Assembly (NCBI GenBank): GCA_016209145.1 | Contig: JACQWT010000051.1 | Coordinates: forward strand, 1 to 62,033 | Direction of reading: 5' to 3' | DNA length: 62,033 nucleotides | Source of the DNA: Deltaproteobacteria bacterium | GTDB taxonomy: Bacteria > Myxococcota_A > Polyangia > Polyangiales > Polyangiaceae | In this document: piece after piece, positions 5,552 to 62,033 of the stretch | Position numbering within the stretch: position 1 is the stretch's first letter | Layout of the letters: each line of letters opens with the position of its first letter | Made by a program: the position numbers and the translations under genes | The notes under the pieces: model-generated | What the model saw: the letters and a program-made list of their open reading frames with translations, nothing else | Told to the model about the DNA's origin: nothing | The model's database searches: none

Positions 5552-8542
<2,991 letters not shown>

Positions 8543-26159: not shown

Positions 26160-26184
26160 ACGGATCCGTGGTATCATCGCCGCG

Positions 26185-27711
26185 ATGCGGGAGACCGCCA
26201 GCGCCGGCGACCAACTACGGCGACGCGCCGAGCGGCGGGTCGGCGCGGTGCTGAACGAGAAGTGGCAGCTCGATCGGCTGCTCGGCGTCGGCGGTATGGC
26301 GGCCGTCTATGCGGCCACGCATCGCAACGGCAAGCGCGTGGCCGTCAAGGTCCTGCACCCGGAGCGCGCCCTGAACGAAAGCATCCGGCGCCGGTTTCTG
26401 CGCGAAGGCTACGCCGCCAACAAGGTCGATCACCCCGGGGCCGTGTCGGTTCTCGACGACGCTGTGGCCAAGGACGGCAGCGTATTCCTGGTCATGGACC
26501 TGCTCGAAGGGGAGACCCTGCAGGCGCGCATCGAGCGCGTGGGGCCACTGCCCGTCGAGGCTGTCCTGCCGGTCGTCCACTGTCTGCTCGACGTGCTTGC
26601 CGCAGCGCACGACAAGGGCATCGTACATCGCGACCTCAAGCCCGAGAACGTCTTTGTCACCGACGCCGACGTGGTCAAGGTGCTCGACTTCGGCATCGCC
26701 CGACTACGCGAGGACGCCGGGCGCACCGGGGCAACCGGCGCCGACACCTCGCTCGGGACACCCGCCTTTATGCCACCCGAGCAGGCCCGCGGCCGCTGGA
26801 ACCAGGTGGACGGCCGCTCCGATCTATGGGCGGTGGGCGCGATCATGTTCACCCTGCTCACCGGTCGCTACGTGCACCAGGCGGCCACGCTCAACGAGCA
26901 CTTGTTGGCTGCCATGACAGAGCCCGCTCCTGCGTTGGGGGTGGTGGCCCCGGAAGTGCCAGCGCAGGTGGCATCCATCGTGGACCGGGCGCTCGCCTTT
27001 GAGAAGGACGCACGCTGGCCTGATGCCCGAGCCATGCAGCAGGCCGTCGCCGACGCCTACGAGGCGCTCGTCGGTACGCCATTGCCCGAGCCTGGCGAGC
27101 ACTCGTCCCGAGGTCTCGCCCGTCCCCCGGCGTCGCGGCCCCGCTCCGCCTCGGCCCCGGTGCTCTCGGCGAGTGGCGACGCAAGCCGGTCCACCACCGC
27201 CGGCGGAGCCCACGAGCTCGGCGGGATCCCGGCGCGGGCCAGGCGGCGCTCCTATCTGCTCGCCGCCGCACTCCTCGTCGCGGTCGCGGTAGGCGCCGCC
27301 TGGCTTGTGCCTCGTGGCGCCGGGCGCGACCGCACGGCGCCGCCGGCGGCCGCGGGCCCCGAGGCTGGCAGCGCGAGTGCGCCGGCTTCGCTGGCGACCG
27401 CGCAGGCAAGCCAGGGCGCGACGGCTCCAGACGCCGGGCTCGCGGTACGCCTGCCGCCTGAGCCGGTCGCAACGGGCGGGCCGTCGCCACCGGGCTCCAC
27501 CGCGGCTGGCGCTCGGGCGGCGGCGAGCCAGGCTTCCGCCGCAACAGCCGCCGCCCCTCCGCGGCAGCCGGGCGTGTCCGCGCCGGCGACCGCTAGGTCC
27601 GCAACTCAGCCCGCGACGAGCGCCGGGCCTTCTGGCGGCGCACGAGCGCCACGGCCGGCCGAGGCCAGCAGCCGCCCGGTTGATCCACTCGGACCCGAGA
27701 CGCAGTGGTGA
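26185..27711 (+). CDS. Ser/Thr protein kinase with a TM segment and an Ala/Pro-rich C-terminal region
   Basis: GVGGMAAVYAATHRNGKRVAVKVL, HRDLKPENVFV, DFGIARL, GTPAFMPPEQ, and the TM segment YLLAAALLVAVAVGAAWLV. Confidence 0.85.
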   Translation: MRETASAGDQLRRRAERRVGAVLNEKWQLDRLLGVGGMAAVYAATHRNGKRVAVKVLHPERALNESIRRRFLREGYAANKVDHPGAVSVLDDAVAKDGSVFLVMDLLEGETLQARIERVGPLPVEAVLPVVHCLLDVLAAAHDKGIVHRDLKPENVFVTDADVVKVLDFGIARLREDAGRTGATGADTSLGTPAFMPPEQARGRWNQVDGRSDLWAVGAIMFTLLTGRYVHQAATLNEHLLAAMTEPAPALGVVAPEVPAQVASIVDRALAFEKDARWPDARAMQQAVADAYEALVGTPLPEPGEHSSRGLARPPASRPRSASAPVLSASGDASRSTTAGGAHELGGIPARARRRSYLLAAALLVAVAVGAAWLVPRGAGRDRTAPPAAAGPEAGSASAPASLATAQASQGATAPDAGLAVRLPPEPVATGGPSPPGSTAAGARAAASQASAATAAAPPRQPGVSAPATARSATQPATSAGPSGGARAPRPAEASSRPVDPLGPETQW

Positions 27712-33149: not shown

Positions 33150-33239
33150 CGCCCCCTCTTGACCTGCATCCGAGGAGAAAGTCTAGCAGCCTTGGCAAGA
33201 CAGCGACATCCCTTTCGCCGCCGACGACCCGATCCTGCG

Positions 33240-33749
33240 CTACCTCCCCGTCCCCCCCCGACCCTTCCACCCCAGCACCCGCAGCGCATTCTCCGAGAAG
33301 ATCTTGCGCACGTCCGCCTGACTCAAGCCGGCGGCGCCCAGGGCACGGGCGAGGTCGGGCAAGCGCGAGGCGTCCTCCAGGCCGCCGGCCGGAGTCGCGC
33401 CGTCGAAGTCCGACCCGATGGCCACGTGGTCGATACCCGCGACGCCGACCATGTGCAGGGCGTGCCGGACGAGATCGTCAATGGTGGCGCGGCGGCTGGC
33501 GATGAACTTCGCGTGGAAGTTGAGCCCGGCGATGCCCCCCGTGCGCGCGATCGCGCGGAGCTGGTCGTCGGTCAGGTTGCGCTGGTTGCGGCACTTGGCC
33601 CGGGCGTTGGAGTGGCTCGCCACGATGGGCGCCCCCGCGGCCTCGGCGATGGGCACGAGATCGGCGAATGCCGCATCGGACATGTGGGAGGCATCCACGA
33701 GCACGCCCTGCTCGTAGATCCGCCGGCACAGCGCCTTGCCGGCCGCGGG

Positions 33750-33750
<1 letters not shown>
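33240..33750 (-). pseudogene. Duplicated 3' half of the M19 membrane-dipeptidase gene (fragment)
   Basis: About 510 bp at ~96% identity to 35637-36145. Encodes AAGKALCRRIYEQG...DFDGATP...LGWKGRGGTGR and lacks the N-terminal half of the enzyme. Confidence 0.75.
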
Positions 33751-34362
<612 letters not shown>

Positions 34363-34555
34363 AGCGCAGGGCCGTCGGTGCGGCGCGGATGATCGGCGCA
34401 CCCTCCGGGGGTGCCAAGCTGGCCACGCCCGTCGCCCCCGCGCCAAGCTCGCGCACGAGCCGGTGGGAGCCCCCGGTGGCTAGGCCAAGCAAGCGCTCGC
34501 GCGGCGGGGCAGGCATACTTGACCCAGGAGGGAACGCCCGCAAGCGGGCGGCCGC

Positions 34556-34812: not shown

Positions 34813-35334
34813 TCACGGGGCAAACATCTCCTGAAGAACCGTGGCAACCCGCGCGAATGTCGGCCCTGACAGTCGGCCAAGATGTCGGAGAAGACGTTCC
34901 CGATCGACGGTGCGAAGCTGGTCCGTGACGACGTGTCCGTTCCGATTCAGGAACCGGCAAGGCACGCGGAACGGGTACGGTCGGCCTCCTGTCGTTAGAG
35001 GAGCGACGATGACAGTGCGGAGATGCGCGTTGAGCTGATCCGGCGAGACCACGACACAAGGCCGCATCTTCTCGATCTCGCTCCCGCGGGTCGGATCCAG
35101 GTCGACGAGGAACACGTCCCCGCGCTGTACGCGTTCACGCCTTCTCCCAGTCGGCTCGTCAGGCGGCCGCGAGCGCGAGCGCGCCCGGAGGCCCGGGCCG
35201 CAGCGTACTCCTGTACGTGAGGACCCGGGCGGAGGACGTAAGCCGCGATCGCGGCCGACTCGGCGAGCCGTCGTTGCTGGCGCGGAAATGCCGTGAACGG
35301 CTACCCCGCGCCTGGCAGACTTCGCAGCTACCAC
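34813..35334 (-). pseudogene. mazF: MazF/PemK-family toxin gene split by a 180-bp MITE-like insertion
   Basis: Core RGDVFLVDLDPTRGSEIEKMRPCVVVSPD...VAPLTT...VVTDQLRTVD. The first nine codons (GTG 35334 ... AGG CGC) are separated from the core by the element at 35126-35305. Confidence 0.7.
35126..35305. mobile_element. MITE-like element, copy A (180 bp, terminal inverted repeats, 6-bp TSD CCGCGC)
   Basis: The ends contain CGTTCACG / CGTGAACG inverted repeats. CCGCGC is at 35120-35125 and 35306-35311. The interior is ~90% identical to the reverse complement of 53047-53225. Confidence 0.65.
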
Positions 35335-35576: not shown

Positions 35577-35636
35577 ACGGAGATACAATGTACCTACGTC
35601 GGGCCGTGACGTCAAGCCCGAGGTGCACGCGCACGG

Positions 35637-36853
35637 CTACCTCCCCGTCCCCCCCCGACCCTTCCACCCCAGCACCCGCAGCGCATTGTCCGAAAAGATC
35701 TTGCGCACGTCCGCCTGGCTCAAGCCGGCGGCGCCCAGGGCGCGGGCGAGGTCGGGCAGGCGCGAGGCGTCCTCCAGGCCGCGGGCCGGAGTGGCGCCGT
35801 CGAAGTCCGACCCGATGGCCAGGTGGTCGATGCCGGCGACGCCGACCATGTGCAGGGCGTGCCGGACGAGATCGTCAATGGTGGCACGGCGGCTCGCGAT
35901 GAACTTGCCGTGGAAGTTGAGCCCGGCGATGCCCCCCGTGCGCGCGATCGCGCGGAGCTGGTCGTCGGTCAGGTTGCGCTTGTTGCGGCACTTCGCCCGC
36001 GCGTTGGAGTGGCTCGCCACGATAGGCGCCCCCGCGGCCTCGGCGATGGGCACGAGATCGGCGAATGCCGCATCGGACATATGGGAGGCGTCCACGAGCG
36101 CGCCCTGCTCGTAGATCCGCCGGCACAGCGCCTTGCCGGCCGCGGTGAGCCCGTGCCGGGCGGACCCGGTCGCCGAGGAGGAGAAGGCGTTGTCGTGGGC
36201 GTGCACGGGGCCCACGAGACGCACGCCGCGCGCGATGAAACCGTCGATCTTGGCGGGATCGGACGCGAAGGCGCGGGCTCCCTCGATGCCGAGGTACACG
36301 GCCACGGCGCCAGGGGGCGCCGGGCCTTGGCTCGCGAGGCGCAGCGAGGGGTTGGCAGCCAGGATCTTCTCGATCGTGCCCAGGACCGCCTCCGTGTCTG
36401 CCGGCCGCGGCTTGCCGCCACGCGCGTCGTCCGGGACGTAGATCGCGAACAGCACCGCGGCGTAGTGGCCGGCGCGCAGCGCCTCCGCGGTGATGTGCCC
36501 CTCCGGCAGGCTCGGGAGGCGCCCCTTGGAATGCACCTGCCAGGCCGTGTCCACGTGCAGATCGACGACCGGCACGGGCGCGTCCGGCCCAGGCTCAGGC
36601 ACCGGCACCGGCAGAGCCGGCTCGCCGGTGCCGGCCGTTGGGCCGCCGCGCGGGCCGGCCGCGGCAATCGAAGTACCGGCGGCGCTCGCCGTCACGGCGG
36701 CAGGGGCCGACCCCGAGGCCGCGCTCGGCGGCTCGGCCCTCTCCGGCCGCGCACAGCCCTGCAGGCAGAGCACGGTGCCCGGCAGCGCCAAGGCGCCGAG
36801 CACCGCGCGCCCGAGGCGGCGGTGCGATCTTCCGGCCGCGGCAGGTGCACGCA

Positions 36854-38137: not shown

Positions 38138-39973
38138 ATGAGCAGGACAACGGCACGCGGCGGGTTTCTGCTTCTCTCGGCAGCGGGCGCCTGGGGCATG
38201 CTCGCCTGCTCGGGCAGCGAGCCAATCGCCGCCACGGGGACTACGACCGGCGGGACAGGGGGCGCGGGCGGGTGCCCCGCGGGGCTGACCGAGTGCTCCG
38301 GCAAGTGCGTGCCCACCGCGCTCGACCCGGCGCACTGCGGCGGCTGTGATCGGGCCTGCGCCCCCGGCGAGGTGTGCGCGGCGGGCCAGTGCGCCATCGA
38401 CTGCGGCGGCGGCACCACCAAGTGCGGCGGCAAGTGCGTGGACACCACCCTCGACAAGGCCCACTGCGGCGGCTGCGACAATGCCTGCGCGGTGGGCGAG
38501 CTGTGCTCCGCCGGAGGGTGCGCGCTCCAGTGCCTGGGCGGCACCACCGACTGCGGCAAGGCGTGCGTGGACACGAAGCTCGATCCGGCCAACTGTGGCG
38601 CCTGCGGCCACGGCTGCGCCCCGGGTGAGGTGTGCTCGGCCGGCCAGTGCGCCCTCGACTGCGGCGGCGGCACCACGAAATGCAGCGGCGCCTGCGTCGA
38701 TCCGGATCTCAACCCCGAGCACTGCGGCGGCTGCAACAACGCCTGCGGCGCGGGCGAGCTGTGCTCGGCCGGCCAGTGTGCGCTCCAGTGCCTGGGCGGC
38801 ACGACCAAGTGCGGCAACAAGTGCATCGACACGACCAACGACCCGGCCAACTGCGGCGGCTGCGGCGTGGCCTGCGCCAAGGGCCAGATCTGCGCGGCCG
38901 AGAAGTGCCAGTCGGAGTGCGGGCCGGGCACGACCAAGTGCGGCAACAAGTGCACCGACACCGCGCTCGATCCCGCCAACTGCGGAAGCTGCGGCGCTGC
39001 CTGCCCGGGCGGCCAGGTGTGCTCCTCCGGCCAGTGCGCGCTCCAGTGCTACGGCGGCACCGTCAAGTGCGGCAGCAAGTGCGTCGACCCGACCCTGGAT
39101 CCGGCCAACTGCGGAAGCTGCGGCAATGCCTGCCCGGGCGGCCAGTACTGCGTGGCCGGCGCCTGTCAGCTCGTCTGCCCCGGACCGCTGACCAAGTGCG
39201 GGAACAAGTGCGTCGACACGCAGACCGATCCGGCTCACTGCGGCGGCTGCGACAAGCCCTGCGGCAACAACGAGACGTGCAGCGCCGGCAAGTGCATCGG
39301 CGGGCTGTACAAGACCTGCAAGGAGATCCTCGATGCCGGCAAGTCGGTGGGCGACGGGATCTACTACATCGATCCCACCGGCGGCGACCCGGGGGACAAG
39401 TTCCAGGTGTACTGCGACATGACGCTGAGCGGCGGCGGCTGGACGCTGGTCTACTTCGTCGACGCCGCCCACTTCGACGGCACGCACGCCAACGACAAGA
39501 ATCTCAACCCCAATGCGCCTACGACGATCAACGCCCAGAAGGACTTCTGGAACGCCGAGTTGAAGCTCGGCATCGCCGAGACGCTGTTCGCCTGCACCAC
39601 GCAGAACGGAGGCGGGCCATACTGGTGGTACTACAACAAGAAGGACCCGCACACGTTCTTCGCCAACACCAGCCAGAGCTACGACTACCAGCCCTCGATG
39701 GCCAGCACCGCCCACAACGGAACGTCGGCCGGCGGCTGCATGAGCACGCACAAGGCCAATCCCTACGGCTTCGTCGTGATCGAGAAGAGCGGCTGCGGCT
39801 CGTGCGGCCAGATGCTCTACGGGATGTACCACTACGACGGCGGCGGCGGCTGCAACAGCACGAGCAACACCTACGGCAACCACGCCAGCCCCTGGGACAA
39901 CCGCAGCATCGCCTACCCGATCTGCAACGGCCAGCAGACGAGCAACGGCAAGCTCTGGGTGGGGGTGCGCTAG
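38138..39973 (+). CDS. Secreted lipoprotein with nine Cys-rich 43-aa repeats and a C-terminal fibrinogen-C-like (FReD-like) module
   Basis: ATG 38138 within ORF 36638..39973. Lipobox GMLACS. Repeats of the form CGGGTTKCGGKCVDTTLDKAHCGGCDNACAVGELCSAGGC, then CKEILDAGKSVGDGIYYIDPTGGDPGDKFQVYCDMTLSGGGWTLV. Confidence 0.65.
   Translation: MSRTTARGGFLLLSAAGAWGMLACSGSEPIAATGTTTGGTGGAGGCPAGLTECSGKCVPTALDPAHCGGCDRACAPGEVCAAGQCAIDCGGGTTKCGGKCVDTTLDKAHCGGCDNACAVGELCSAGGCALQCLGGTTDCGKACVDTKLDPANCGACGHGCAPGEVCSAGQCALDCGGGTTKCSGACVDPDLNPEHCGGCNNACGAGELCSAGQCALQCLGGTTKCGNKCIDTTNDPANCGGCGVACAKGQICAAEKCQSECGPGTTKCGNKCTDTALDPANCGSCGAACPGGQVCSSGQCALQCYGGTVKCGSKCVDPTLDPANCGSCGNACPGGQYCVAGACQLVCPGPLTKCGNKCVDTQTDPAHCGGCDKPCGNNETCSAGKCIGGLYKTCKEILDAGKSVGDGIYYIDPTGGDPGDKFQVYCDMTLSGGGWTLVYFVDAAHFDGTHANDKNLNPNAPTTINAQKDFWNAELKLGIAETLFACTTQNGGGPYWWYYNKKDPHTFFANTSQSYDYQPSMASTAHNGTSAGGCMSTHKANPYGFVVIEKSGCGSCGQMLYGMYHYDGGGGCNSTSNTYGNHASPWDNRSIAYPICNGQQTSNGKLWVGVR
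38273..39297 (+). repeat. Tandem array of ~129-bp coding repeats (about nine units, with a 258-bp super-period)
   Basis: gactgcggcggcggcaccac recurs at ~38398 and ~38656. Each unit carries the CxxxxxxC...C..C...C......C......C spacing. Confidence 0.8.
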
Positions 39974-47809: not shown

Positions 47810-49324
47810 CTAAGGACCCACCTGGGCGCTCTCCGGCCTCCCCACGGCCGCGGACGCCTGGCGGGCGGCCTCGCCCCGGGGTCGCCCCCCGACCCCGAGC
47901 CGGTAGCTGGCAGGGGCACGCCGCCGCTTCGCTCGGCGGCGAGCGTCGTACATCGCGAGCAGGCGCCCGCGCGCGTCGACGATCTCTTGGAGCCGCTGGT
48001 CACCTACGGGCACTCGGACCGAGAGCTGGCTCTGGTGGACAGCGAGCTCGCCCGCGAGGGTGAACAGCTCGTAGCGCAGCCGCTTCGGTCGCGCGTCCCG
48101 GAAGCGCTCCGGTAGCGCGCACCTCTTGAGCACGGTGAGCACGTTGAATGTCAGCGCGTTGATGCGGAACCATGCGGCGTTTGCGCCGAACCGCGCGCTG
48201 GGCAGCACGCCCGCGCCGAGCTCGTCCTTGAGCACCCGGTGCACGTGCTCGATCGTGCCGGCCTTCTGCCGGTGCCAGCGCACGATCTCGGCCGCGTCTT
48301 CGAGATCGTGGCGGTTGCTCACGATGGCGTGGTAGCTGACCCCCTTGCTCTCGAACAGCTCCTGCTGGCGCGGCGTGAACCGCAGCGCGATGTAGCGCAG
48401 CGGCTTCGCGTCGCGCGGCCAGTCGCCCGGCGTGAACTCCACCTCGGCGAGGTCGACCTGTTCTCGCTCACGCGTATCGAGCAGAGCCCACCGCTCCGGT
48501 TCCACCGCGGTGCAGCACGCTCGTAGCTCCTTCGACATGTCCGCGCTGATCGCGAAGCCGATCTTCTCGCTCACCAGGTACTTGAGCAGCGGCGTGTAGT
48601 ACGCCGCCGAGTCGGCACGGAAGCGGCGCGCGACGACCCACGGCGGCAAGTTCGCAAACGCCCGCTTCACCGAGGTCAACGGGTCTTCGCCCCCCGCCAC
48701 GTTGCCGTCGCGGAACTCGTCCGCCACGACGAGCTGCTGCTCCGCCCACACCGCCACCAGAGGCTGGAACCCCCGCGTTCCCTCGTACGCCACCTTCGCG
48801 TCGCGCTTGTGTGCCTCGATGATCGTCCCGTCGTGGTCGATGGTCGCCTGCGTCACGCCAGGCTCGGCGCCTCGCGCCACCAGTTCGCGGTTGACCGCGT
48901 CCAGTGCCCGCAGACTCTCCGACTCCGGCGGCACCCACGCCTTCTTCTCGGGCGGCCGATCCTCGTAGCCCTTCGGGTCGTGGAACTGTCCGACGATGTC
49001 GAGTAGCGCGTCGGGCGATGGAAAGGGCGCGCCGAGAAGCTTCTCCAGCCCCCTGTCCTCCGCCAGCACGCGCACGTCCTCCACGCGATCGCCGCCCGCC
49101 GCGATCAGCGTCACGAGCGCCTCGAGCTTCTGCGCGGGAGCGAAGCCTCGCTGCCGCTTCTGCTGCGGCAGCTCATTCGCTGCCAACTCGTCCAGCCCCA
49201 GCGCCCGCATCGTCTCGACGACGAGCGGCAGCCCGGCCCGGGCGGTGACGTCGTCTCGCTTGGCCTGCACGATCACGAACGGCAAGATACCCTGCCGGCC
49301 GTCCCGACGCAGTCGCAGGCTCAT
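47810..49324 (-). CDS. IS1380-family transposase
   Basis: MSLRLRRDGRQGILPF...TIDHDGTIIEAHKRDA...FRADSAAY...YHAIVSN...WHRQKAGTIEHVHRVLKDELG... is the typical IS1380/DDE layout. The stop lies inside the left inverted repeat. Confidence 0.9.
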   Translation of the reverse strand: MSLRLRRDGRQGILPFVIVQAKRDDVTARAGLPLVVETMRALGLDELAANELPQQKRQRGFAPAQKLEALVTLIAAGGDRVEDVRVLAEDRGLEKLLGAPFPSPDALLDIVGQFHDPKGYEDRPPEKKAWVPPESESLRALDAVNRELVARGAEPGVTQATIDHDGTIIEAHKRDAKVAYEGTRGFQPLVAVWAEQQLVVADEFRDGNVAGGEDPLTSVKRAFANLPPWVVARRFRADSAAYYTPLLKYLVSEKIGFAISADMSKELRACCTAVEPERWALLDTREREQVDLAEVEFTPGDWPRDAKPLRYIALRFTPRQQELFESKGVSYHAIVSNRHDLEDAAEIVRWHRQKAGTIEHVHRVLKDELGAGVLPSARFGANAAWFRINALTFNVLTVLKRCALPERFRDARPKRLRYELFTLAGELAVHQSQLSVRVPVGDQRLQEIVDARGRLLAMYDARRRAKRRRAPASYRLGVGGRPRGEAARQASAAVGRPESAQVGP

Positions 49325-49325
49325 C

Positions 49326-49691
49326 TCAGCTCCGCCGGCGCCGGCGCGCCCGGCGGCGCTCGCGCGCCTCACGCTTCAGGTCCGAGAGCTCGCACGCGGT
49401 CAGCTCGTTGATCACCTTCCATAGCGTCGTGTACGCGCCGAGTGCTGCGCGCACCCTGGCCTCGTCCTCGGGGCGGACGTGCAGCGCATGCGTGCGCCCG
49501 TCGAGCTGCACCGTGAGAAACTTCCCTCCGTGCCGCTTGCCTGGATCGCGGGCGCAGGCGCAGTTGGGGCGACCGCAGCGCCGCAGGCGCTCGACCAGCG
49601 AGCCGCGCATCAGCGGCGCGAAGCTCAGCGCGCGGAGCTGCTCGCGCAGGTCGCGCCGGTGACGCTGGGTCTGCTCGCGGTCGGATGCCAT
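49326..49691 (-). CDS. Small Cys-motif accessory protein of the IS (DUF6788-like)
   Basis: MASDREQTQRHRRDLREQLRALS...RCGRPNCACARDPGKRHGGKF. Lies directly upstream of, and coupled to, the transposase (TGAGATG). Confidence 0.5.
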   Translation of the reverse strand: MASDREQTQRHRRDLREQLRALSFAPLMRGSLVERLRRCGRPNCACARDPGKRHGGKFLTVQLDGRTHALHVRPEDEARVRAALGAYTTLWKVINELTACELSDLKREARERRRARRRRRS

Positions 49692-49887
49692 ATCTGAATC
49701 ATGTAACACTAACCAGATATCCGCTCAAGCAAAAATTCGCCCTTGGGGCGGACCCCCTCCACGCCCGAACCCCCTGCTACTGCGGCGGATCCCGGGACCC
49801 GGCCGACCTTAGAGCGGAGTTATGGGGTGCCGCGCCTGCTTGTCGTTCTCGTGCAGGTCGTGCTACAAGAGCTCGGGGAGCAGTGGC

Positions 49888-53036: not shown

Positions 53037-53456
53037 TCACGGCGTTGGTATGCGTTCACGCATTGCGGCGCTAGCAACGACGGCTCGCCGAGTCGGCCGC
53101 GATCGCGGCTTACGTCCTCGGCCCGGGTCCTCACGTTCGGGAGTACGCTGCGGCCCGGGCCTCCGGGCGCGCTCGCGCTCGCGGCCGCCTGACGATCCGG
53201 GTGTTGGAATGCGTGAACGGCTACCGGCGTTGACGTCCACGACCGCTCGGTCGTCGTCCACGGCGTACACGACCCGGTAGTCCCCGACGCGGATGCGCCG
53301 CAGGTCGTTGCGACCGACGAGCTTACGGCGCCCCGGCGGTCGCGGGGCCGCAGCGAGCGCCTCGATCCTCCGGAGAACGCGATCGGCCTGCCGCGCATCG
53401 AGGCCCTCCAACTCGCGCCGCGCGGACCGCGCGAGGACCACGCGGTACCTAGCCAC
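53037..53456 (-). pseudogene. RelE/ParE-family toxin gene with its 3' end replaced by read-through into the MITE
   Basis: GTG 53456. VARYRVVLARSARRELEGLDARQADRVLRRIEALA...LVGRNDLRRIRVGDYRVVYAVDD is RelE/ParE-like. After ...VVDVNA the frame enters the element at 53225. Confidence 0.65.
53047..53225. mobile_element. MITE-like element, copy B (179 bp, TIRs GGTATGCGTTCACGCATT / AATGCGTGAACGGCTACC, 6-bp TSD GGCGTT)
   Basis: GGCGTT at 53041-53046 and 53226-53231. The interior matches the reverse complement of copy A. Confidence 0.7.
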
Positions 53457-54310: not shown

Positions 54311-54569
54311 GTCTTCTGCCTTCGCAAAGTCCGGGCCAGGGAGCGGCGGGCGCCCTGCGAGTCGGGCTGTCGCTAGGAGATCCACGTGGTTGCGTATCCA
54401 GGTCGCCGCCGCACGCAGCGGCCGTTTGCAGGTTGGACGGCCAGGCCCGCGCTTTCGGCCTACCGCACCCACGACAGTGCTGTCGCGGTGGGCTCGATCC
54501 ATGGGTTGCGCCGGCTACGCGGACGTTCAACCATGACGCACCGTGGACGGGAATACCGCCAGCCGTCGC

Positions 54570-54686
54570 GTAGCCGTTCACGGCATTTCCGTGCCGGCAA
54601 CGACGGCTCGCCGAGTCGGCCGCGATCGCGGCTTTCGTCCTCGGCCCGGCTCCTCACGCACAGGAGTACGCTCCGGGCCGGGCCTG
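54570..54686. mobile_element. MITE-like element, copy C (truncated or degenerate, one terminus only)
   Basis: GTAGCCGTTCACGGCATTTCCGTGCCGGCAACGACGGCTCGCCGAGTCGGCCGCGATCGCGGCT... matches copies A and B for ~115 bp, then diverges. No second TIR is present. Confidence 0.5.
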
Positions 54687-55519: not shown

Positions 55520-56350
55520 CTAGCCCCGGCGCAGCCGATCGATCTCCGCCTGCAGCTCCGCGACGCGCCGCAGGGCCTCGTCGCGCTCCTGCTCGGCGCG
55601 CTCCCGCTCTTGCTCGGCGCGCTCCCGCTCTTGCTCGGCGCGCTCCCGCTCCTGCTCGGCGCGCTCACGGCGACCGACCAGATCGCCGACCATGGCCTCG
55701 AGCCTGGCCACGAGCTCGTCGGCCTCTGGCAGCGGCGCCGTGCCGAAGTAGAAGCGCAGACGCTCGTCGACAAGCGCCAGATCGAGGCCGAGCACCGCCG
55801 AGCTGTACAACCCCTGCTGCGGCATGATGGCCTCGTAGCTGCGGGCCTCGACGCGCGGCAGCCGCCAGCCGTAGAGCCGGCCGCGGGTTCGGTCGAACAA
55901 GAAGTACTCGGGGATCCCGAGCCGCGCGTAGCGCCGGCGGTTGCCCTCGAAGTCCTTGGCGAACTCACCGCTGACGTGGATCTCCAGCACCAGATCGAGC
56001 CCCTTGCCCTCGTGGCTCACGACCCACGTGCTGCGCTCGTGCGGCTCCACGTCGAGCACGGCCAGCACGTCCGGGGCGAAGCGCGGCTCGCCCGGGTAGT
56101 AGACGCTGAGCTCCGAGGACAGGTACACCTTGCGCCCGATGCGGCGGTAGAAAGCGTCGAGCGCGCCGAGCGCGCGCGACTTGGCGAGGCGGTGGGCGTC
56201 GCCCTCGGGCATGAACAGCTCGAGCGGCACCTCGCACGGCAGCGCCGCCACGACCCGGCGGCGTTCTTCGGACGACATGCGCTCCCACTGCTCGGCCGTG
56301 GGCGCCCGAGGATCGCTGGCGTCGAGGTGAAAGACGACGGGTTGGGTCAT
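55520..56350 (-). CDS. Uma2-family endonuclease with a C-terminal heptad-repeat extension
   Basis: ATG 56350. FMPEGDAHRLAKS...FAPDVLAVLDV...LDLVLEIHVS...YARLGIPEYFLFD, then a C-terminal (ERAEQER)x4 and VAELQAEIDRLRRG. Confidence 0.7.
   Translation of the reverse strand: MTQPVVFHLDASDPRAPTAEQWERMSSEERRRVVAALPCEVPLELFMPEGDAHRLAKSRALGALDAFYRRIGRKVYLSSELSVYYPGEPRFAPDVLAVLDVEPHERSTWVVSHEGKGLDLVLEIHVSGEFAKDFEGNRRRYARLGIPEYFLFDRTRGRLYGWRLPRVEARSYEAIMPQQGLYSSAVLGLDLALVDERLRFYFGTAPLPEADELVARLEAMVGDLVGRRERAEQERERAEQERERAEQERERAEQERDEALRRVAELQAEIDRLRRG
55583..55672 (-). repeat. Four tandem 21-bp in-frame repeats (ERAEQER heptads)
   Basis: gcgctcccgctcttgctcggc is repeated head-to-tail. Confidence 0.85.
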
Positions 56351-56425
56351 CACCACCAGGATAGCGCGGACCGGGCCCGGTGTGCTACGCACGGGCCGTC
56401 GCCCGCCCTCTCACGCAGTCTCCTC

Positions 56426-59206
56426 ATGCCCGCCCGTCGTTCACCCTACCTCCTGCGAGCGCGCCTGCTCACCCCGCTGCTGTGGTTCTTTCTGGCCGGG
56501 TGCAGCCTCGATGCGCCGGTAGATCCGCCGACCGGCCCGGGCCGGCGGCCGCAAGGCGTGCAGGCCGAGCAGCGGGCTTTCGCGCTGCCCGACCGGCTCG
56601 ACCTGACGCTTCCCTGGGGCCCCGGCCCGGCCGAGGTTCGCTTTTCGCCCCCCGGCCTCGAGCAGGTGGCGGCCGGCCCGAGCGCCATCGCCGTGACGCC
56701 CGACGGCGCGGCGCTGGTGCTCGATCGGCTCGGCGGCCGCGTGCTGCGCGTGACCGGGCCCGGCGGCGTGGCCGAGCTGGCGAAGGTGCCCCGCGACGCC
56801 GAGGACCTCGGCGTGGGGCCGGGGGGCGACATCGTCGTCTTCAGCCCGCTGCGGGCCACCGCTTGGCTCTTCGGCGCGGACGGCCGTGCGTCGGGCGAGC
56901 TCGGGGTGCCGCGCGTCTTGCGCGAGATCCAAGGGATCTCGCTCGGCGTGTCGCGCCGGGTACTGCTGCGCACGGCCTACCAGGAGCAGCTCGTGCTCGG
57001 CAGCCCCGCCGCACCGCTCTCCCTCGCCGCCGCGTTGCGCACCAAGGCCGAGGGTGCCTTCGCGATCGGGAACGGCCGGACGGTGGCCGCCCGCGTCGAC
57101 GGCGAGGCCGCCGCGATCGTCGTGCTGGAGCCCGGGCCGGCGGAGGATCCGCGGGCGCGCGAGGTGCAGCGCCACCGCCTCCCGGGCGAGGCGAGCGCGG
57201 TTCGCCTCGTTGGCGCCGCGGGCTCGCTCGTGTGCGCGCGCATCGAGCGCGTGCGCTCGAGTCCCGAAATCGAGGTCGAGCGCCGCGCCGTCTGCCTCGA
57301 CGCCGGCACAGGCGACGTGCTCGCCGAGCTCGCCCTGCCGCCGCCCGGATCGTACGTGCCGCGCACCGAGCTCGCCGTTGGCGGCGCCGAGCTGACGGCG
57401 CGCAGGCTGCTCGCGGCCGGATGCGCGGCGCTCTGCGTGCTTGGCCTGGCGCCGCCGGCGCTCGCCATCAGCCGCGACGAGGTCATGGTCCGGGCCAAGG
57501 CATTCGCCTATCACCCCTGGACCTGCACCAACGCCAACCTCACCGCCCCGTGCAAGGGTGGCTACAAGAGCGCGTATGTGCCCGGCGACTACCTCGGCCT
57601 GCCCTACGACTGGGGCGGCTACATGACGCTGTTCGAGTTCGACCAGCAGATCGCCAAGGGCTACGGCGCGGGCTCCTACCCCCAGGACGGCGTGCTCGAG
57701 TGCACTGCGGGCGTCGACTGCTCGGGCTACGTGAGCAAGTGCTGGGACGCCGCACACTACGGGACGGCGTCGCTCGGCCAGATCTCGTCGGCCATCGACG
57801 TCTCGGCCCTGCTCGCCGGCGATGCGCTCAACAAGCCCGACTACCACGTCGTGCTCTTCAGCCACAAGACGGGCGGTGGTGAGCCGGTTTTCTACGAGGC
57901 CGTCGGATACAACGTCCACGTCAACGTCAGCGCCGGCTGGTCGTACGTCGCGGGCTACACGCCGCGGCGCTACCAGGGCATCACGGGCTCTTCCGCCGGC
58001 AACCCCGCGGGCACGCCGCTCAATCCCATCGTCATTGGCGCCCTGCCCTACACCGACCAGCGCGACACGACCGAGAGCGCGAGCGACGTGCTCGACGGCT
58101 GCGGCGCCGCGCCGAGCAAGCAGGAGTCTGGCCCCGAGTACGTCTACCAGCTCGACGTCAAGCAGCCCGGCACGCTCACGGCTGCGATCCAGGACGATGT
58201 CAACGTGGACATCGACGTGCACCTGTACACCTCGATGAACACGGGCGACTGTGTCGCGCGCGACGACAGCAAGCTCAGCTACCCGGTCGACTGCGGCACC
58301 TACTACATCGTCGCGGACACGTTCCACAGCGGCAGCAGCGGCAAGGACTACCCCGGACCCTACTCGCTGACCGTCACGCTCGCGCCCTCGGGCAAGAGCT
58401 GCGGCGGCGGCCCGCCCCAGTATGCCTTCGAGGGCGAGCTGGGCGATCCCTGCGCCTACCCCGGCGACGAGAGCCTGCCCTTCTGCAACCCGAACCTCGG
58501 CGCGGACACGTGCCTGTACGGTGATGCCACGAGCTTCTGCTCCAAGCCGTGCGACTCGGACGGCGACTGCAAGGGGCTTGCCGGCGGCTGCTGCGGCGAC
58601 ATCGGCCAGAATGAGCTCTACTGCCTGACCGCCGAGCTGTGCGGCTCCGGCCCGCCCGACGGCGGCTCCAGCTCCAGCTCGACGTCAAGCTCGGGCTCCA
58701 GCTCCAGCACGAGCTCCACCACGAGCTCGGGCTCCACGTCGACCGGCTCCAGCAGCGGCGGCGGCGCAGGCGGCGGCGTCGCGCCGGGCGGCGGCGGCCC
58801 GGGCACGGGCGGCGAGGCAAGCTCCACGAGCGGATCGAGCGCAGGGGGCAAGAAGCGGGGTGCGGACAGCGAGGACGAAGGCGGGTGCGCCCTGGCGCCC
58901 GGGCGAGGGCGCGGTGGGGGCGCGATGCTGTGGCTGCTCGCCGCCCTGGTCGCTCTGGCACGGGGCCGCAAGGCTGCGGGCGACCGGCTGCGGGCATGGA
59001 TCGGGGTTGGATTTCCTGGTCACCCGCTACCGGATTTTGAGAAGCTACGGAATTGGCCTGATATTTCTTCGTATTCCCGCGAGGCCGCGCGTGGAGCTCG
59101 ACTGGACCACCGTGGACAAGCTGGCCGCGATGAATACCGACTTCGAGAACTTTCTGAAAAACGTCACCTACGATCTTGGGACGGACATTCACCCGAAGGA
59201 GTATGA
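56426..59206 (+). CDS. Composite ORF: N-terminal lipoprotein region, then an NlpC/P60-like cysteine peptidase, a PPC-like domain, a Cys-rich module, a Ser-rich linker and a MYXO-CTERM-like tail
   Basis: ATG 56426 with lipobox FFLAGC. An internal signal-like TARRLLAAGCAALCVLGLAPPALA at ~57395. GVDCSGYVSKCWD...HVVLF (NlpC/P60-like). GGCALAPGRGRGGGAMLWLLAALVALARGRK near 58880-58975. The ORF then reads on into low-GC DNA. Confidence 0.55.
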   Translation: MPARRSPYLLRARLLTPLLWFFLAGCSLDAPVDPPTGPGRRPQGVQAEQRAFALPDRLDLTLPWGPGPAEVRFSPPGLEQVAAGPSAIAVTPDGAALVLDRLGGRVLRVTGPGGVAELAKVPRDAEDLGVGPGGDIVVFSPLRATAWLFGADGRASGELGVPRVLREIQGISLGVSRRVLLRTAYQEQLVLGSPAAPLSLAAALRTKAEGAFAIGNGRTVAARVDGEAAAIVVLEPGPAEDPRAREVQRHRLPGEASAVRLVGAAGSLVCARIERVRSSPEIEVERRAVCLDAGTGDVLAELALPPPGSYVPRTELAVGGAELTARRLLAAGCAALCVLGLAPPALAISRDEVMVRAKAFAYHPWTCTNANLTAPCKGGYKSAYVPGDYLGLPYDWGGYMTLFEFDQQIAKGYGAGSYPQDGVLECTAGVDCSGYVSKCWDAAHYGTASLGQISSAIDVSALLAGDALNKPDYHVVLFSHKTGGGEPVFYEAVGYNVHVNVSAGWSYVAGYTPRRYQGITGSSAGNPAGTPLNPIVIGALPYTDQRDTTESASDVLDGCGAAPSKQESGPEYVYQLDVKQPGTLTAAIQDDVNVDIDVHLYTSMNTGDCVARDDSKLSYPVDCGTYYIVADTFHSGSSGKDYPGPYSLTVTLAPSGKSCGGGPPQYAFEGELGDPCAYPGDESLPFCNPNLGADTCLYGDATSFCSKPCDSDGDCKGLAGGCCGDIGQNELYCLTAELCGSGPPDGGSSSSSTSSSGSSSSTSSTTSSGSTSTGSSSGGGAGGGVAPGGGGPGTGGEASSTSGSSAGGKKRGADSEDEGGCALAPGRGRGGGAMLWLLAALVALARGRKAAGDRLRAWIGVGFPGHPLPDFEKLRNWPDISSYSREAARGARLDHRGQAGRDEYRLRELSEKRHLRSWDGHSPEGV

Positions 59207-59331
59207 CGAGGTGCCTGATGATGCCGCTCGCTATGTCAAGGAGCGCAGAGCATGCAGGGGCACTTCTCGCTCGCCGGCGTAGTCCCGCGAACTGTTGAAG
59301 GTTGAGTGGCGGCTTCCACCAACCCGATCGG

Positions 59332-59856
59332 ATGATCGGGCTTGCAAAGGAGGTCGCCGCCCTGAAGGAAGCTGCCAGGAAGAGAGCCGCGAGGGAGGGG
59401 CCTGCCGCACAGCCGACGCTTCCGCTCGGCGCGGCGGTGCGCGAGTCGCTGCTGGAGACACTGATCGCGTCGGGGATGGCCCACGTCTACGAGGTGCTGG
59501 AGCGTGGGCGCGTCGCCGCGTGCGGACCGCGCCACGAGCATGACGCCGAGCGCCGGGCGCGCCGTGCGGGCCACACGCCGGGGGCGCTCGTCCACGGTGG
59601 CCGTCGCGTCGCGGTGCGCCGGCCGCGTGCGCGCACCGTCGGCGGCCGCGAGGTCGAGCTGCCGAGCTGGCGCGCCTGGTCCGACGAGGACCCGCCGCGG
59701 GAGCGCGCGATCGAGCAAATGGTCGTGTGTGTCTCGACCCGCCGGTACGACCGCTCGCGGGAGCCGGTCCCCGACGTCGTGCCCAGGGATGCCCCCGCTC
59801 GTCGCTGCTCTCCGTGCCCACGACGCGAAGCTCGACGGAGCTACGCGCCCAGTTGA
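59332..59856 (+). pseudogene. N-terminal fragment of an IS256-family (Mutator-type) transposase
   Basis: LLETLIASGMAHVYEVLERGRVAACGPRHEHDAERRARRAGHTPGALVHGGRRVAVRRPRARTVGGREVELPSW...VSTRRYDRS matches the N-terminal third of IS256-type transposases. The DDE region is absent. Confidence 0.55.
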
Positions 59857-60085
59857 CGCGCCCAAGAGGGCCGCGTAGCGATGCCGGTGCCGCCGCTGAA
59901 TTTCCACAGCGACCGGGACATCGCCCCCGCCGACTGATTTCTCAATTCCCGCGGCGGCCTCAGGGCTTCGGACGAAGCCGCGGGCGGCGTTTCCATACCC
60001 CGCCGCCAAGCTGTTGCGTTCCCTTCGGGATTCTCCGGCGGCGCCATCCGCGGCCGCGGCAAGGCAGCCCATGAAACCAAGGCGA

Positions 60086-60901
60086 TCAATCTGCGACCAG
60101 GGAGCCGCGGTGAAGCTGCCCCCGCAGCTCGGCGTAGCGGGCCGGTGAGAGAGCCGCGTTCCACGTCCGCCGCTTGCGCGAGAGCCACGAAAGAAGACGG
60201 CCAGGGTCAGTCGGCGGCGCCGCACGGGCTGCTTCGCCAGCCAGATTGGCAAGCCGGCCGACCGGATCCTTCTCGGAAGCTGCCTGCCGGCCCACGTCCG
60301 CAACCAGGGCGAGACGAAATGCGAGCACGGTCCAGCGCGCCACCGCGATGGTCTGCGCCAGTGAGAAGCCGATCGGGCCGCGCAGGTCGGTGGCGGCAAG
60401 CTCGGGATCGACGTCGAGCCGGTCGAGCGTCCAGCGAAGGAGATGGACGCCCGAGGTCCACTTCCCGCGCCGCTCGACGCACGTGCGGAAGTAGCCGCGC
60501 GACAGGCTCACCATGGCCACCTCGGCCCGGCAGCCCTCGACCCGGTGGAGCGCGGCCATGGTGGCGATCTTCGTGCCGAGGTGGCCGTAGTTCTGGACCT
60601 CCTCGATCACGGCGTCAGCCGGAAGCTGGCCGTTCGGCTTCTCGGCGAGACCCCGTTCCAACGCGCCGACGTTGGCCTCGGCTACGAGGACCGCGCGCTT
60701 CTTCGGGTAGACCTTGGCGTGCGCGGCCTGTTCCCAGGCAGCCGACTCGGCCAGGAGATCCTTGCGCAGCAGCAGGCCGCAGGTCGTGCGCTCGGGGTGC
60801 GAGAGGATGAGCCGGTGGCGCGTGCAGTAGCCGAAGGCGGTGCCCACGGGCCCGATCTGCAGCGGGTTGTGGCAGCAGTTGACGCAAGAGAGCGGCTGCA
60901 T
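60086..60901 (-). CDS. Hypothetical protein with an N-terminal Cys cluster (second gene of a coupled pair)
   Basis: 271 aa with protein-like composition. MQPLSCVNCCHNPLQIGPVGTAFGYCTRHRLILSHPERTTCG, then a helical region. ATG 60901 overlaps the stop of the upstream gene (TGATG). Confidence 0.5.
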   Translation of the reverse strand: MQPLSCVNCCHNPLQIGPVGTAFGYCTRHRLILSHPERTTCGLLLRKDLLAESAAWEQAAHAKVYPKKRAVLVAEANVGALERGLAEKPNGQLPADAVIEEVQNYGHLGTKIATMAALHRVEGCRAEVAMVSLSRGYFRTCVERRGKWTSGVHLLRWTLDRLDVDPELAATDLRGPIGFSLAQTIAVARWTVLAFRLALVADVGRQAASEKDPVGRLANLAGEAARAAPPTDPGRLLSWLSRKRRTWNAALSPARYAELRGQLHRGSLVAD

Positions 60902-61350
60902 CAGATCCTCACTCGCGCCTTGGCGAATGTCCCGCGCACCTTCTCCTCGATCATCTCAGCAGCAACGGTGGTCCAGTCAAGCAGGTGCTCGCTCCACTGG
61001 GCTACGTAGGCCGCGGCCTGCGCCACCTCGAAGGCGTCGTGCCACTTGGCCTTGCCCTTGCCGAAGCCGCGCAGGTTCTCGAGGAGCTGCTTGCGCGGCA
61101 GATGCTCGGCTCCTGCCGTCGTGGCCGTCGGCACGTCCGTCTGCCAGACCTGGCCCGTCTGGCCGGCGAAGTACTCGGCCACCTCGACGGACTCGGTCGT
61201 CGACGTGAAGGGCGTGCTGCGCCCGGGACCGCCGAGGTAGAGGACATGCGCCACAAGGCTCGTGCGGGAGGTCGGATCGGGCACGGCCGGTCCGGCAGCA
61301 GCATCGCCGCGGTAGAGCGGGTCGCGCGTCGTCCAGGGCTTGCGCGCCAT
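60901..61350 (-). CDS. Hypothetical 149-aa protein (first gene of the pair) with a weak R-S-E-like residue pattern
   Basis: ATG 61350 within ORF 60901..61500. MARKPWTTRDPLYRGD...RSTPFTSTTESVEVAEYF...AQWSEHLLDW. No recognised family. Confidence 0.4.
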   Translation of the reverse strand: MARKPWTTRDPLYRGDAAAGPAVPDPTSRTSLVAHVLYLGGPGRSTPFTSTTESVEVAEYFAGQTGQVWQTDVPTATTAGAEHLPRKQLLENLRGFGKGKAKWHDAFEVAQAAAYVAQWSEHLLDWTTVAAEMIEEKVRGTFAKARVRI

Positions 61351-61542
61351 GACGAGCGTGAGAGTAGCACAAGGGGACGGCGGACGTGTTGGCGACGCGG
61401 TCTTGGCGTCGGCGCGCGCAGGCGTGACGTGGTCGCCCGCGCGCGGCCCCGCCAGGCCGCAGCCGACCGCCTTCCGGCATGGATCGGGCTTGGATTCCAT
61501 GCGAACGCCTCTGCGCCGCGCGAGCAGGCGGTGATAGCCTGG

Positions 61543-61667
61543 CCCTAGGAGTCTGTCGGAGAAAAAACTAAGTGCGCGGAATTATTAGGTTCCAGCGTCA
61601 GAGTAAAGTGAGCGATTTCGATAACTTGGACCATTTCGAGCACGCTTTCTCCGACACACTCCTAGGG
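61543..61667. repeat. 125-bp element: 22-bp near-perfect inverted repeats flanking an 81-bp low-GC core, ending 3 nt before an ATG
   Basis: CCCTAGGAGTCTGTCGGAGAAA at 61543-61564 versus TTTCTCCGACACACTCCTAGGG at 61646-61667 (21/22 complementary). Confidence 0.6.
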
Positions 61668-61670
61668 ACG

Positions 61671-62033
61671 ATGCTGGCGAACCGGCGCAGCCTGGTGGGT
61701 GCCCTGGCCGCCGCGCTCCTGCTTGCGGGGGGCGCGGAGTGCGGGGGCAGTGCCACCATCGACAGCGGCGGCGGGGCCGGCGCCGGCAATGGAGACGGAG
61801 GCGCGGCCGGCCACGGCGGCCACGGCGGCCACGGCGGCCACGGCGGCCACGGCGGCCACGGCGGCGCGGGCGGCGACGCCGGCTGCGGCCCGTGCGCGGC
61901 GGGATGGCAGTGCTGCAGCGGGCAGTGCGTGGACGCGGCGAGCGATCCGGCCAACTGCGGCGGCTGCGGCCAGGCCTGCGCGCCGGGCCGGCCCTGCACG
62001 CTCGGGCAGTGCGGGCCGGGGTGCATCGGCTGC
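61671..62033 (+). CDS. Partial (5' end) secreted Cys-rich repeat protein, paralogous to the repeat region of the 38138 gene
   Basis: It is missing from the ORF track, presumably because it runs off the window. MLANRRSLVGALAAALLLAGGAEC (lipobox), (GHG)6, then CCSGQCVDAASDPANCGGCGQACAPGRPCTLGQC. Confidence 0.55.
   Translation, partial: MLANRRSLVGALAAALLLAGGAECGGSATIDSGGGAGAGNGDGGAAGHGGHGGHGGHGGHGGHGGAGGDAGCGPCAAGWQCCSGQCVDAASDPANCGGCGQACAPGRPCTLGQCGPGCIGC
61809..61862 (+). repeat. Six tandem 9-bp repeats (GGCCACGGC, encoding Gly-His-Gly)
   Basis: Read directly from the sequence. Confidence 0.9.

Follow-up and report, generated by a model that had tools for sequence, protein, structure and literature searches.

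How does a patch of foreign DNA come to lie between two imperfect copies of the same gene end? The question is raised by a locus in contig JACQWT010000051.1 (assembly GCA_016209145.1, a deltaproteobacterium of the Polyangiaceae), a complete NCBI contig of 62,033 nt that is referred to here as the window. In this locus, the end of a gene for a MYXO-CTERM-type surface protein occurs twice in the same orientation, and the DNA between the two copies carries a two-gene cassette on the opposite strand. An earlier note, made from the letters of the DNA alone, had described a 2.5-kb island bounded by ~35-bp imperfect direct repeats and had likened it to an integrated element flanked by attachment (att)-like or duplicated target sequence. 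Our results lean, by no wide measure, towards another explanation, namely that the interval at ~59017–61429 is a scar, left by DNA that entered through insertion or replacement without the help of a recombinase and pushed the 3' end of the gene out of place, and not an active att-flanked element.

A repeat search of the window aligned 58947–59018 with 61430–61501 over 72 nt without gaps, in the same orientation, at 78% identity and with a spacing of 2483 nt. The repeats of the earlier note are real, and the 35–36 nt that it reported are the best-conserved right half of this longer repeat. Identity per 12-nt block was 9, 8, 9, 9, 11 and 10 of 12 within the repeat; both edges are sharp, because it falls to 0–5 of 12 immediately beyond them. 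Gapped local alignment of the two copies scored 32, against 13.0 ± 1.6 (maximum 20) for 300 composition-preserving shuffles. The longest identical runs between the copies measure 13 and 7 nt, and the core GGCATGGATCGGG[G/C]TTGGATT occurs twice in the window, in the two repeat copies, where the expected number is 0. On the plus strand, the left copy (58947–59018; 70–72 nt, imperfect) spans the last 9 codons of the tripartite tail of the surface protein (LVALARGRK) and ~43 nt beyond. The right copy (61430–61501, plus strand) sits within a spurious N-terminal extension of a 199-aa open reading frame (ORF) called by NCBI, and its first 11 nt (61430–61440) are the partner of a shorter inner repeat considered below.

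The repeat is private to this locus. We scanned the core 21-mer in 185,579 genomes (one per species) and in 241 million metagenome records, and obtained 7 and 9 matches, respectively, all of low GC content and with A or T at the variable position. All of these lay within unrelated genes (for example, in Poribacteria and in a CHAD-domain gene) and are chance matches, which rules out a common genomic motif, the finding that the earlier note had named as a refutation. Beyond the two copies in the window, no related one was found in the scanned public genomes or metagenomes, a scan whose reach does not extend to the rest of the source genome. An assembly chimera or artefact was likewise ruled out, since both junctions recur at 100% identity in a separate 4.2-kb assembly that Logan made from run SRR12113406. 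Three functional identities were also rejected. An RNA element or terminator was excluded because neither copy matched Rfam at the gathering threshold or at E ≤ 1, and because folds of both copies, on both strands, were no better than those of shuffles. A promoter or operator of the cassette was excluded because none of five other loci (L010, L013, L018, L033 and L034) has the repeat upstream of its cassette. A sigma-54 promoter in the left copy (TGGCAC...) was dropped, its spacing being one base short and the right copy having no match.

The canonical part of the surface-protein gene (57392–58975, plus strand) ends ...GGCALAPGRGRGGGAMLWLLAALVALARGRK, and it follows its operon partner, a gene for a lipoprotein-like protein of 322 aa (56426–57391, plus strand). 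In the window the two genes share one frame with no intervening stop, and the NCBI annotation treats them as a single fusion of 926 aa. An internal signal peptide (RRLLAAGCAALCVLGLAPPALA) marks where the second gene starts. Orthologous loci have two separate genes, of ~330–380 and ~510 aa, in different frames and with overlapping stop and start codons. The surface protein has 291 homologues, the best of them 64–68% identical and several labelled MYXO-CTERM by their sources, and the closest orthologue among 5.8 billion proteins is 68% identical. As to the MYXO-CTERM assignment made earlier, orthology is clear and a tripartite tail (GGC...AMLWLLAALVALA...RGRK) is visible, but the TIGR03901 MYXO-CTERM model did not match the window protein at E ≤ 10, although it gave 22 bits (cut-off 20) for the orthologue P0002; the basic cluster of the window protein is weak, and extra codons follow it. 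Orthologues measure 497–552 aa and stop 0–10 residues (occasionally ~30) beyond the Arg cluster. The window ORF has no stop after ...ALARGRK and continues for 77 more codons (58976–59206, plus strand), and GC content at third codon positions (GC3) drops from 0.93 to 0.42 at this boundary. The gene has lost its normal stop codon, and the extension is a read-through into non-coding DNA, abnormal as the earlier note had judged it. A non-native tail of 77 residues past the sorting signal may impair processing of the surface protein by myxosortase.

In four orthologous loci, the surface-protein gene is the second gene of a two-gene operon, with unrelated genes directly after it, and none of the four carries an insertion behind it. 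Synteny with Minicystis and three other loci covers the two-gene operon only and yields no empty site.

At the other end of the patch, the right copy, read in the phase equivalent to that of the gene, gives VVARARPRQAAADRLPAWIGLGF and runs on to a stop, as had been noticed before; the stop is a TAG at 61546–61548, and the coding status of the continuation (61502–61548, plus strand) is uncertain. This TAG is part of the terminal CCCTAGG of a 125-bp, low-GC hairpin element (61543–61667) that resembles a miniature inverted-repeat transposable element. The hairpin element has 22-nt terminal inverted repeats (CCCTAGGAGTCTGTCGGAGAAA) with one mismatch and an RNA hairpin z-score of −6.2, is single-copy in the window and lies directly before the ATG of the next chromosomal gene. 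A reconstruction without it, leaving CCCTAGGG, places a stop 5 nt ahead of that ATG. The independent Logan contig breaks off 29 nt into the hairpin element.

The junctions themselves show a second, shorter repeat. An 11-bp sequence, TGGTCACCCGC (59017–59027, plus strand), forms a head-to-tail junction with the left copy and is identical at 10 of 11 positions to the first 11 nt of the right copy, TGGTCGCCCGC (61430–61440). Exact matches to TGGTCRCCCGC, sought on both strands of the window, number two and fall precisely at the two junctions. The layout of the locus is therefore a unit (70 nt), the 11-mer, a 2.4-kb patch and the unit again, with the 11-bp direct repeat bracketing 59028–61429. The patch has no terminal inverted repeats: local alignment of its two ends scored 7, where shuffles gave 7.8 ± 1.2. 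No recombinase inside or beside the repeats came to light when every ORF in 59.0–61.5 kb and the neighbouring genes were scanned against Pfam and NCBIfam; the matches were limited to an N-terminal relic of IS256, a Uma2 endonuclease and housekeeping genes. The locus is set in core chromosome (SLT, dprA, topA, trmFO).

The DNA between the two copies is acquired and mosaic, not native, because it holds a relic resembling a restriction enzyme, a dead derivative of an IS256-family insertion sequence (IS) and a cassette known from unrelated contexts, all lying between the gene and the second copy of its 3' end. That the island was acquired had been proposed before and is upheld. The interval is low in GC, and in the frame of the surface-protein gene its GC3 is 0.42.

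What had been described as a low-GC leader is indeed present, at 59031–59282, and proves to be the 3' relic of a gene for a HARE-HTH, restriction-endonuclease-like protein (plus strand), comprising roughly its final 70–80 codons with an internal deletion of ~12 codons. A 63-codon ORF within it (59091–59282) aligns in phmmer searches to the C-termini of proteins of 141–333 aa (best E 1.1e-17, 71% identity), and the full-length relatives carry an N-terminal PF05066 HARE-HTH domain. The HARE-HTH domain is associated with restriction endonucleases. At the DNA level, homology to L035, a metagenome contig of 579 nt, runs from ~59075 to 59255. We regard the remnant as a relic and not as a gene because only the C-terminal ~55–80 residues are present, the first ~250 codons being gone. 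The cut lies no more than ~15 nt from where the left repeat copy ends, the left limit of the relic being itself uncertain to ~15 nt. Ahead of the GTG of the relic ORF, at 59037–59090, are a sigma-70-like promoter match (TTGAGA-17-GATATT) and a GAGG ribosome-binding site; the relic may still be transcribed or translated.

Next to the relic lies an internally deleted IS256-family element of 650 bp (59276–59925, plus strand). The N-terminal transposase fragment recognized earlier is confirmed by both a profile and a nucleotide search, and belongs to this larger element, which keeps both terminal inverted repeats: the left one at 59276–59299 is GGCGTAGTCCCGCGAACTGTTGAA, and the right one at 59902–59925 is, as reverse complement, GGCGATGTCCCGGTCGCTGTGGAA. 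These match the ends of a full-length Bradyrhizobium IS256-family copy, GGGGATGTCCCG-N4-CTGTTGAA. No 8–9-bp target duplication surrounds the element, as its flanks, TCGCTCGCC and CCCGCCGAC, differ. The transposase pseudogene (59302–59856, plus strand) encodes the N-terminal ~150 residues only. Residues 74–151 of its product align to profile positions 5–83 of 338 in NCBIfam NF033543 (E 6e-5; 22 bits, cut-off 150), so that with an element of 650 bp a complete Mutator-type DDE transposase is absent; in blastn it is 69.8% identical over 156 nt to Bradyrhizobium IS256-family transposase genes. The pseudogene has lost its start codon, with CTG at 59362 where the relative has ATG. A plasmid origin of the patch was rejected, since the IS256 piece alone matches plasmids. 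Between the IS relic and the cassette lies a spacer of 160 nt (59926–60085) with no coding signal and with a fold no better than those of shuffles.

The remainder of the patch is the cassette, a coupled two-gene operon on the minus strand, as had been reported; it has a GC3 of 0.86–0.87, a 1-nt stop/start overlap and conserved homologues. The first gene (60901–61350) encodes a protein of 149 aa with a predicted small ADP-ribosyltransferase (ART)-like fold, and the second (60086–60901) a protein of 271 aa that belongs to no known family or fold, with a Cys-rich, zinc-ribbon-like N-terminus followed by a helical domain. Alignments with L010 and L033/L034 place the cassette promoter at 61351–61380 (minus strand), with an extended −10 element (TGnTAnnnT) ~14 nt before the ATG. 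This element is conserved in relatives, and the conserved part of the cassette unit has its left limit here. Nucleotide homology among cassettes covers 60123–61350 and the ~30-nt promoter; because it ends at the promoter and near the stop codon of the second gene, comparison of the loci indicates that the cassette is a portable unit of ~1.3 kb.

Homologues numbered 69 for the 271-aa protein and 32 for the 149-aa protein, almost all of them metagenomic. The pair is retained in L010, L012, L013–L017, L033, L037 and L039, down to 39–41% identity. The cassette was seen in at least six unrelated genomic neighbourhoods, other myxobacterial contigs included: behind the surface-protein gene of the window; flanked by a BtrH_N/DUF4872 gene and a fragment of that gene; next to genes for an M48 peptidase, a NERD-kinase and an MmeI-type restriction-modification enzyme; next to an acyltransferase gene; next to genes for an ABC-2 permease and glycosyltransferases; and in an unannotated neighbourhood. 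The family thus shows no preference for the surface-protein gene as a target. A prophage origin was rejected, as no relative of the cassette was found in 2.9 million viral contigs and the lone PHROG match was a weak one to a small ORF (E 0.13). In the same sequencing run as the independent assembly, a second and distant member of the 271-aa family (39% identical) was noted on a Logan contig of 1410 nt (L036, SRR12113406), presumably from another organism.

The closest relative of the cassette, L010 (76% nucleotide identity), also has imperfect direct repeats on either side (6645–7043 and 9290–9588, 81% identical), of which the first lies inside the BtrH_N/DUF4872 gene and the second is the 103-aa fragment of that gene. 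These repeats measure 300–400 nt, with a near-identical core of ~130 nt, and their geometry is unlike that of the window. No flanking repeats were found around the cassette in L013, L018, L037 or L039, so that duplications at its flanks are not a general feature. We treat the repeats of L010 as a coincidence of regions rich in gene fragments, although they leave room for a bolder reading, given below.

To obtain a view of what the cassette encodes, we compared both proteins with profile and structure libraries. Neither protein, nor the 26 and 41 aligned members of the two families, matched Pfam, NCBIfam, PADLOC or PHROG, and sequence-profile searches of the PDB with both proteins gave nothing below E 0.9. 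AlphaFold2 models had high confidence values (predicted local distance difference test), 94.9 for the 149-aa protein and 94.4 for the 271-aa protein. With the 149-aa model, the top Foldseek matches in the PDB were pertussis toxin S1, Tpt1/KptA, TreTu, cholera toxin A1, DarT and ParT (best E 0.086, TM-score 0.49), and those in BFVD were ModA/ModB (phage) and ADP-ribosylases (best E 0.03–0.07). The named matches in the two libraries were almost exclusively of the ADP-ribosyltransferase fold, and none was significant. R14, S50 and E121 are invariant in the family and T51 is nearly so; they lie on predicted strands at residues 12–17, 48–52 and 121–125, the first, second and last main strands. This placement is the R-S-E pattern of ADP-ribosyltransferases, and R14, S50 and E121 would be the putative catalytic triad. 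On these models, the 149-aa protein is probably ART-like. The 271-aa protein has conserved N-terminal cysteines (C6, C9, C10, C26 and C41) and a helical body, and Foldseek found no structural analogue for it in the PDB better than E 1.8. Collectively, the cassette probably encodes an ADP-ribosyltransferase-type toxin and its cognate partner.

How the patch arrived is then best pictured as follows. Through recombination of an illegitimate or one-sided homologous kind, acquired DNA would have been joined to the surface-protein gene within its last ~70 nt and 3' flank, and the patch would later have been reworked by the IS256 insertion and by deletions. In the two copies of 70–72 nt, a single stretch of gene end would occur twice over. 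On the left it would still be joined to the gene, which lost its stop and reads into junk, and on the right it would be the orphaned 3' end, moved 2.5 kb downstream to lie beside the following gene. Two routes to the duplication are conceivable: a single complex event might have duplicated ~70 nt of the target and been followed by long divergence, or the resident end might have been displaced by the homologous end of a diverged relative or paralogue. In this picture, the patch would not now be mobile as a unit, the repeats would be a scar and not functional attachment sites, and the cassette, an independent portable module with its own promoter, would be the sole part still under selection.

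We favour this scar reading because the repeat is private and sharp-edged, because the content of the patch is foreign and decayed, and because the patch has neither a recombinase nor inverted ends. It is further favoured by the portability of the cassette, by the four insertion-free orthologous loci and by the 11-bp repeat at the inner edges of the junctions; short direct homology is of the kind met at illegitimate joints. A precedent is the published model for rhs and type VI secretion system (T6SS) loci, in which orphaned 3' ends arise by one-sided homologous and illegitimate recombination (PMC5361080). The sequence itself shows the repeat with its sharp edges, the mosaic and decayed content, the lack of a recombinase, the portability of the cassette and the loss of the usual stop; the mechanism of recombination, the route of duplication and the biochemical role of the cassette are inferred.

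In the frame of the gene, 7 codons differ only synonymously between the copies, compared to 0–4 in the other five frames (simulation p = 0.035), a weak hint from the sequence that both copies may have evolved as coding gene ends and one that weakly favours displacement by a homologous end. This hint conflicts with GC3, which past the RGRK codons of the repeat is ~60% and in the right-hand tail is ~73% (our counts). Such a non-coding look weighs against the hint, and it is one of several points that tell against the scar as a whole. No related genome shows the state before the insertion, so its direction, age and mechanism are inferred. A divergence of 22% is large for a duplication made in place. 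The route through a second gene end calls either for a donor whose own copy of the gene had earlier been broken at the identical point, or for a tandem paralogue, of which the orthologous loci show none. Lastly, the best-conserved stretch of the repeat (20 of 21 nt, at its right end) would also fit the core site of a recombinase, as would the 11-bp inner repeat.

These last points belong to the explanation closest to the earlier note, that of a decayed site-specific integrative element, in which the repeats or the 11-bp TGGTCRCCCGC would be attL/attR cores and the integrase gene would later have been deleted. Direct repeats in the same orientation do bracket foreign DNA at the 3' end of a gene, their identity peaks in a short core (13 and 7 identical nt), and the 10/11 inner repeat lies exactly at the junctions. 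However, there is no recombinase within or adjoining the interval and there are no terminal inverted repeats, and the left junction adjoins a 5'-truncated relic, so that a deletion would need to have ended exactly at the edge of the repeat. Moreover, the orthologous site is free of insertions in other genomes, the cassette occurs at six unrelated sites without preference for this gene and has no relative among the viral contigs, and the interior is marked by several separate events. We consider an integrative element improbable, and the claim of a discrete element with att sites is not supported. The other half of that claim, a duplicated target sequence, is still a live description, but a recent duplication does not fit copies so far diverged. 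A further explanation is that a 70-nt tandem duplication already existed and that a 2.4-kb block then entered its second unit, 11 nt from the start, and duplicated 11 bp of target. Such a history needs only two events and accounts for the head-to-tail junction, where the 11 nt past the left unit match the start of the right unit, and an inner repeat (10/11) less diverged than the 70-nt units (78%) would fit a later insertion, although this difference is within sampling noise at 11 nt. It is opposed by a block that has no inverted ends and no transposase able to create an 11-bp duplication, and by a reconstructed tandem that leaves the gene without any stop codon. We regard it as unlikely, if less so than the integrative element.

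It is far less probable still that the likeness of the two copies is functional, each being a protein-binding or regulatory DNA site upstream of the cassette and of the downstream gene, or that it arose by chance. Similarity over 72 nt that include the coding sequence of the gene, at z ~12 relative to shuffles, tells against both; five other loci lack the motif upstream of their cassettes, neither an RNA family nor a significant structure was detected, and the left copy has no downstream gene to regulate. What could be said for it is that the most conserved part of the repeat holds two TGGAT half-sites one helical turn apart (TGGAT-N6-TGGAT), and that the right copy lies 80–150 nt upstream of the cassette start.

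Read as a scar, the locus has its nearest likeness in the C-terminal displacement of effector-immunity genes in rhs, contact-dependent growth inhibition (CDI) and T6SS loci by homology-facilitated illegitimate recombination (Jackson 2009; Kirchberger 2017; PMC5361080). There too, incoming DNA joins the 3' end of a resident gene without a dedicated recombinase, the cargo is a toxin-like gene and a partner, and the old 3' end persists as an orphan. In the window, a diverged copy of the resident 3' end lies likewise orphaned, as a direct repeat, downstream of the acquired DNA, which is the mark of such a scar. Unlike in those systems, the cargo lies on the opposite strand and is not fused to the resident gene, which itself is no polymorphic toxin; the orphan measures just ~120 nt, the junction gives the gene no proper end, and the donor and the homologous anchor are unobserved. 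Like att-flanked islands and prophages, the window has a gene with foreign DNA at its 3' end, bracketed by similarly oriented repeats that include a well-conserved short core. Unlike them, the patch carries neither integrase nor excisionase and has a mosaic, decayed interior; its repeats match at 78% and not in full, the gene end is unrestored and there is no recurrence at orthologous sites. The IS relic has the terminal inverted repeats and N-terminal transposase homology of the IS256 family, but at 650 bp, compared to ~1.4 kb, it has lost its catalytic domain along with its start codon and has no 8–9-bp target duplication, which makes it a passenger and not the maker of the 72-nt repeat.

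The cassette itself compares with the pairs DarT-DarG and ParT-ParS and with Tre-type effectors and their immunity proteins. As in these, the first gene encodes a small, predicted ART-like protein in which R, S/T and E positions are conserved, the second encodes a conserved partner that is translationally coupled to it, and the pair is portable between contexts; two small, translationally coupled genes that stay paired across contexts are also the layout of type II toxin-antitoxin systems. In contrast to the known pairs, the fold matches of the cassette are weak (best E 0.03–0.09) with no sequence-family match, and the partner has no macrodomain or known antitoxin fold. A bolder proposal, to which we attach low confidence, is that the 149/271-aa pair might be an undescribed conflict module of Myxococcota, an ART-fold toxin with a partner of novel fold, that carries no recombinase and spreads through recombination events in which diverged duplicates of neighbouring host genes may be left behind, as in the window and independently in L010.

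Nothing here goes beyond known kinds of genome change: the locus is an ordinary, well-resolved case of foreign DNA piling up behind a gene and damaging it, and it illustrates that imperfect direct repeats can border acquired DNA without being att sites. What most deserves further attention is the cassette. It represents two confidently folded protein families of ~30–70 members each that are absent from Pfam, NCBIfam, PADLOC and PHROGs, one with an ART-like predicted fold and the other with no structural analogue. The pair is portable among myxobacterial genomes, and it may reasonably be considered as a candidate toxin-antitoxin or defence system of a new kind.

The remaining observations concern the surroundings of the locus. 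To its right, the next chromosomal gene (61670–62033, plus strand) encodes a Gly/His/Cys-rich protein with a signal peptide and is cut by the contig end. A tandem array at 38293–39316, of 8–9 units of 129 nt, encodes Cys-rich repeats, and a related unit occurs at 61913–62033; this unit, in the gene cut at 62033, may be the reason why the contig ends there. To the left, a gene for a Uma2-family putative endonuclease (55520–56392, minus strand) lies divergently upstream of the two-gene operon and has a C-terminal tandem 21-nt repeat (ERAEQER units, 55581–55664). An intact IS1380-family transposase gene (NF033539, 239 bits) with an adjacent DUF6788 gene was found at 47813–49724 (minus strand), among dprA, topA and trmFO. 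Several longer repeats were also noted in the window. A direct repeat of 300 nt links 33239–33538 with 35636–35935 (95%), and inverted repeats of 135–165 nt link 35127–35323 with 53060–53224 and 54551–54685 (89–91%), with a direct pair at 53060/54583 (88%). An inverted repeat of 636 nt (26160–26795 and 33740–34375, 80%) overlaps a repeat family with an HRD.KPEN-like motif, whose members, judged by this motif, are probably protein-kinase paralogues.

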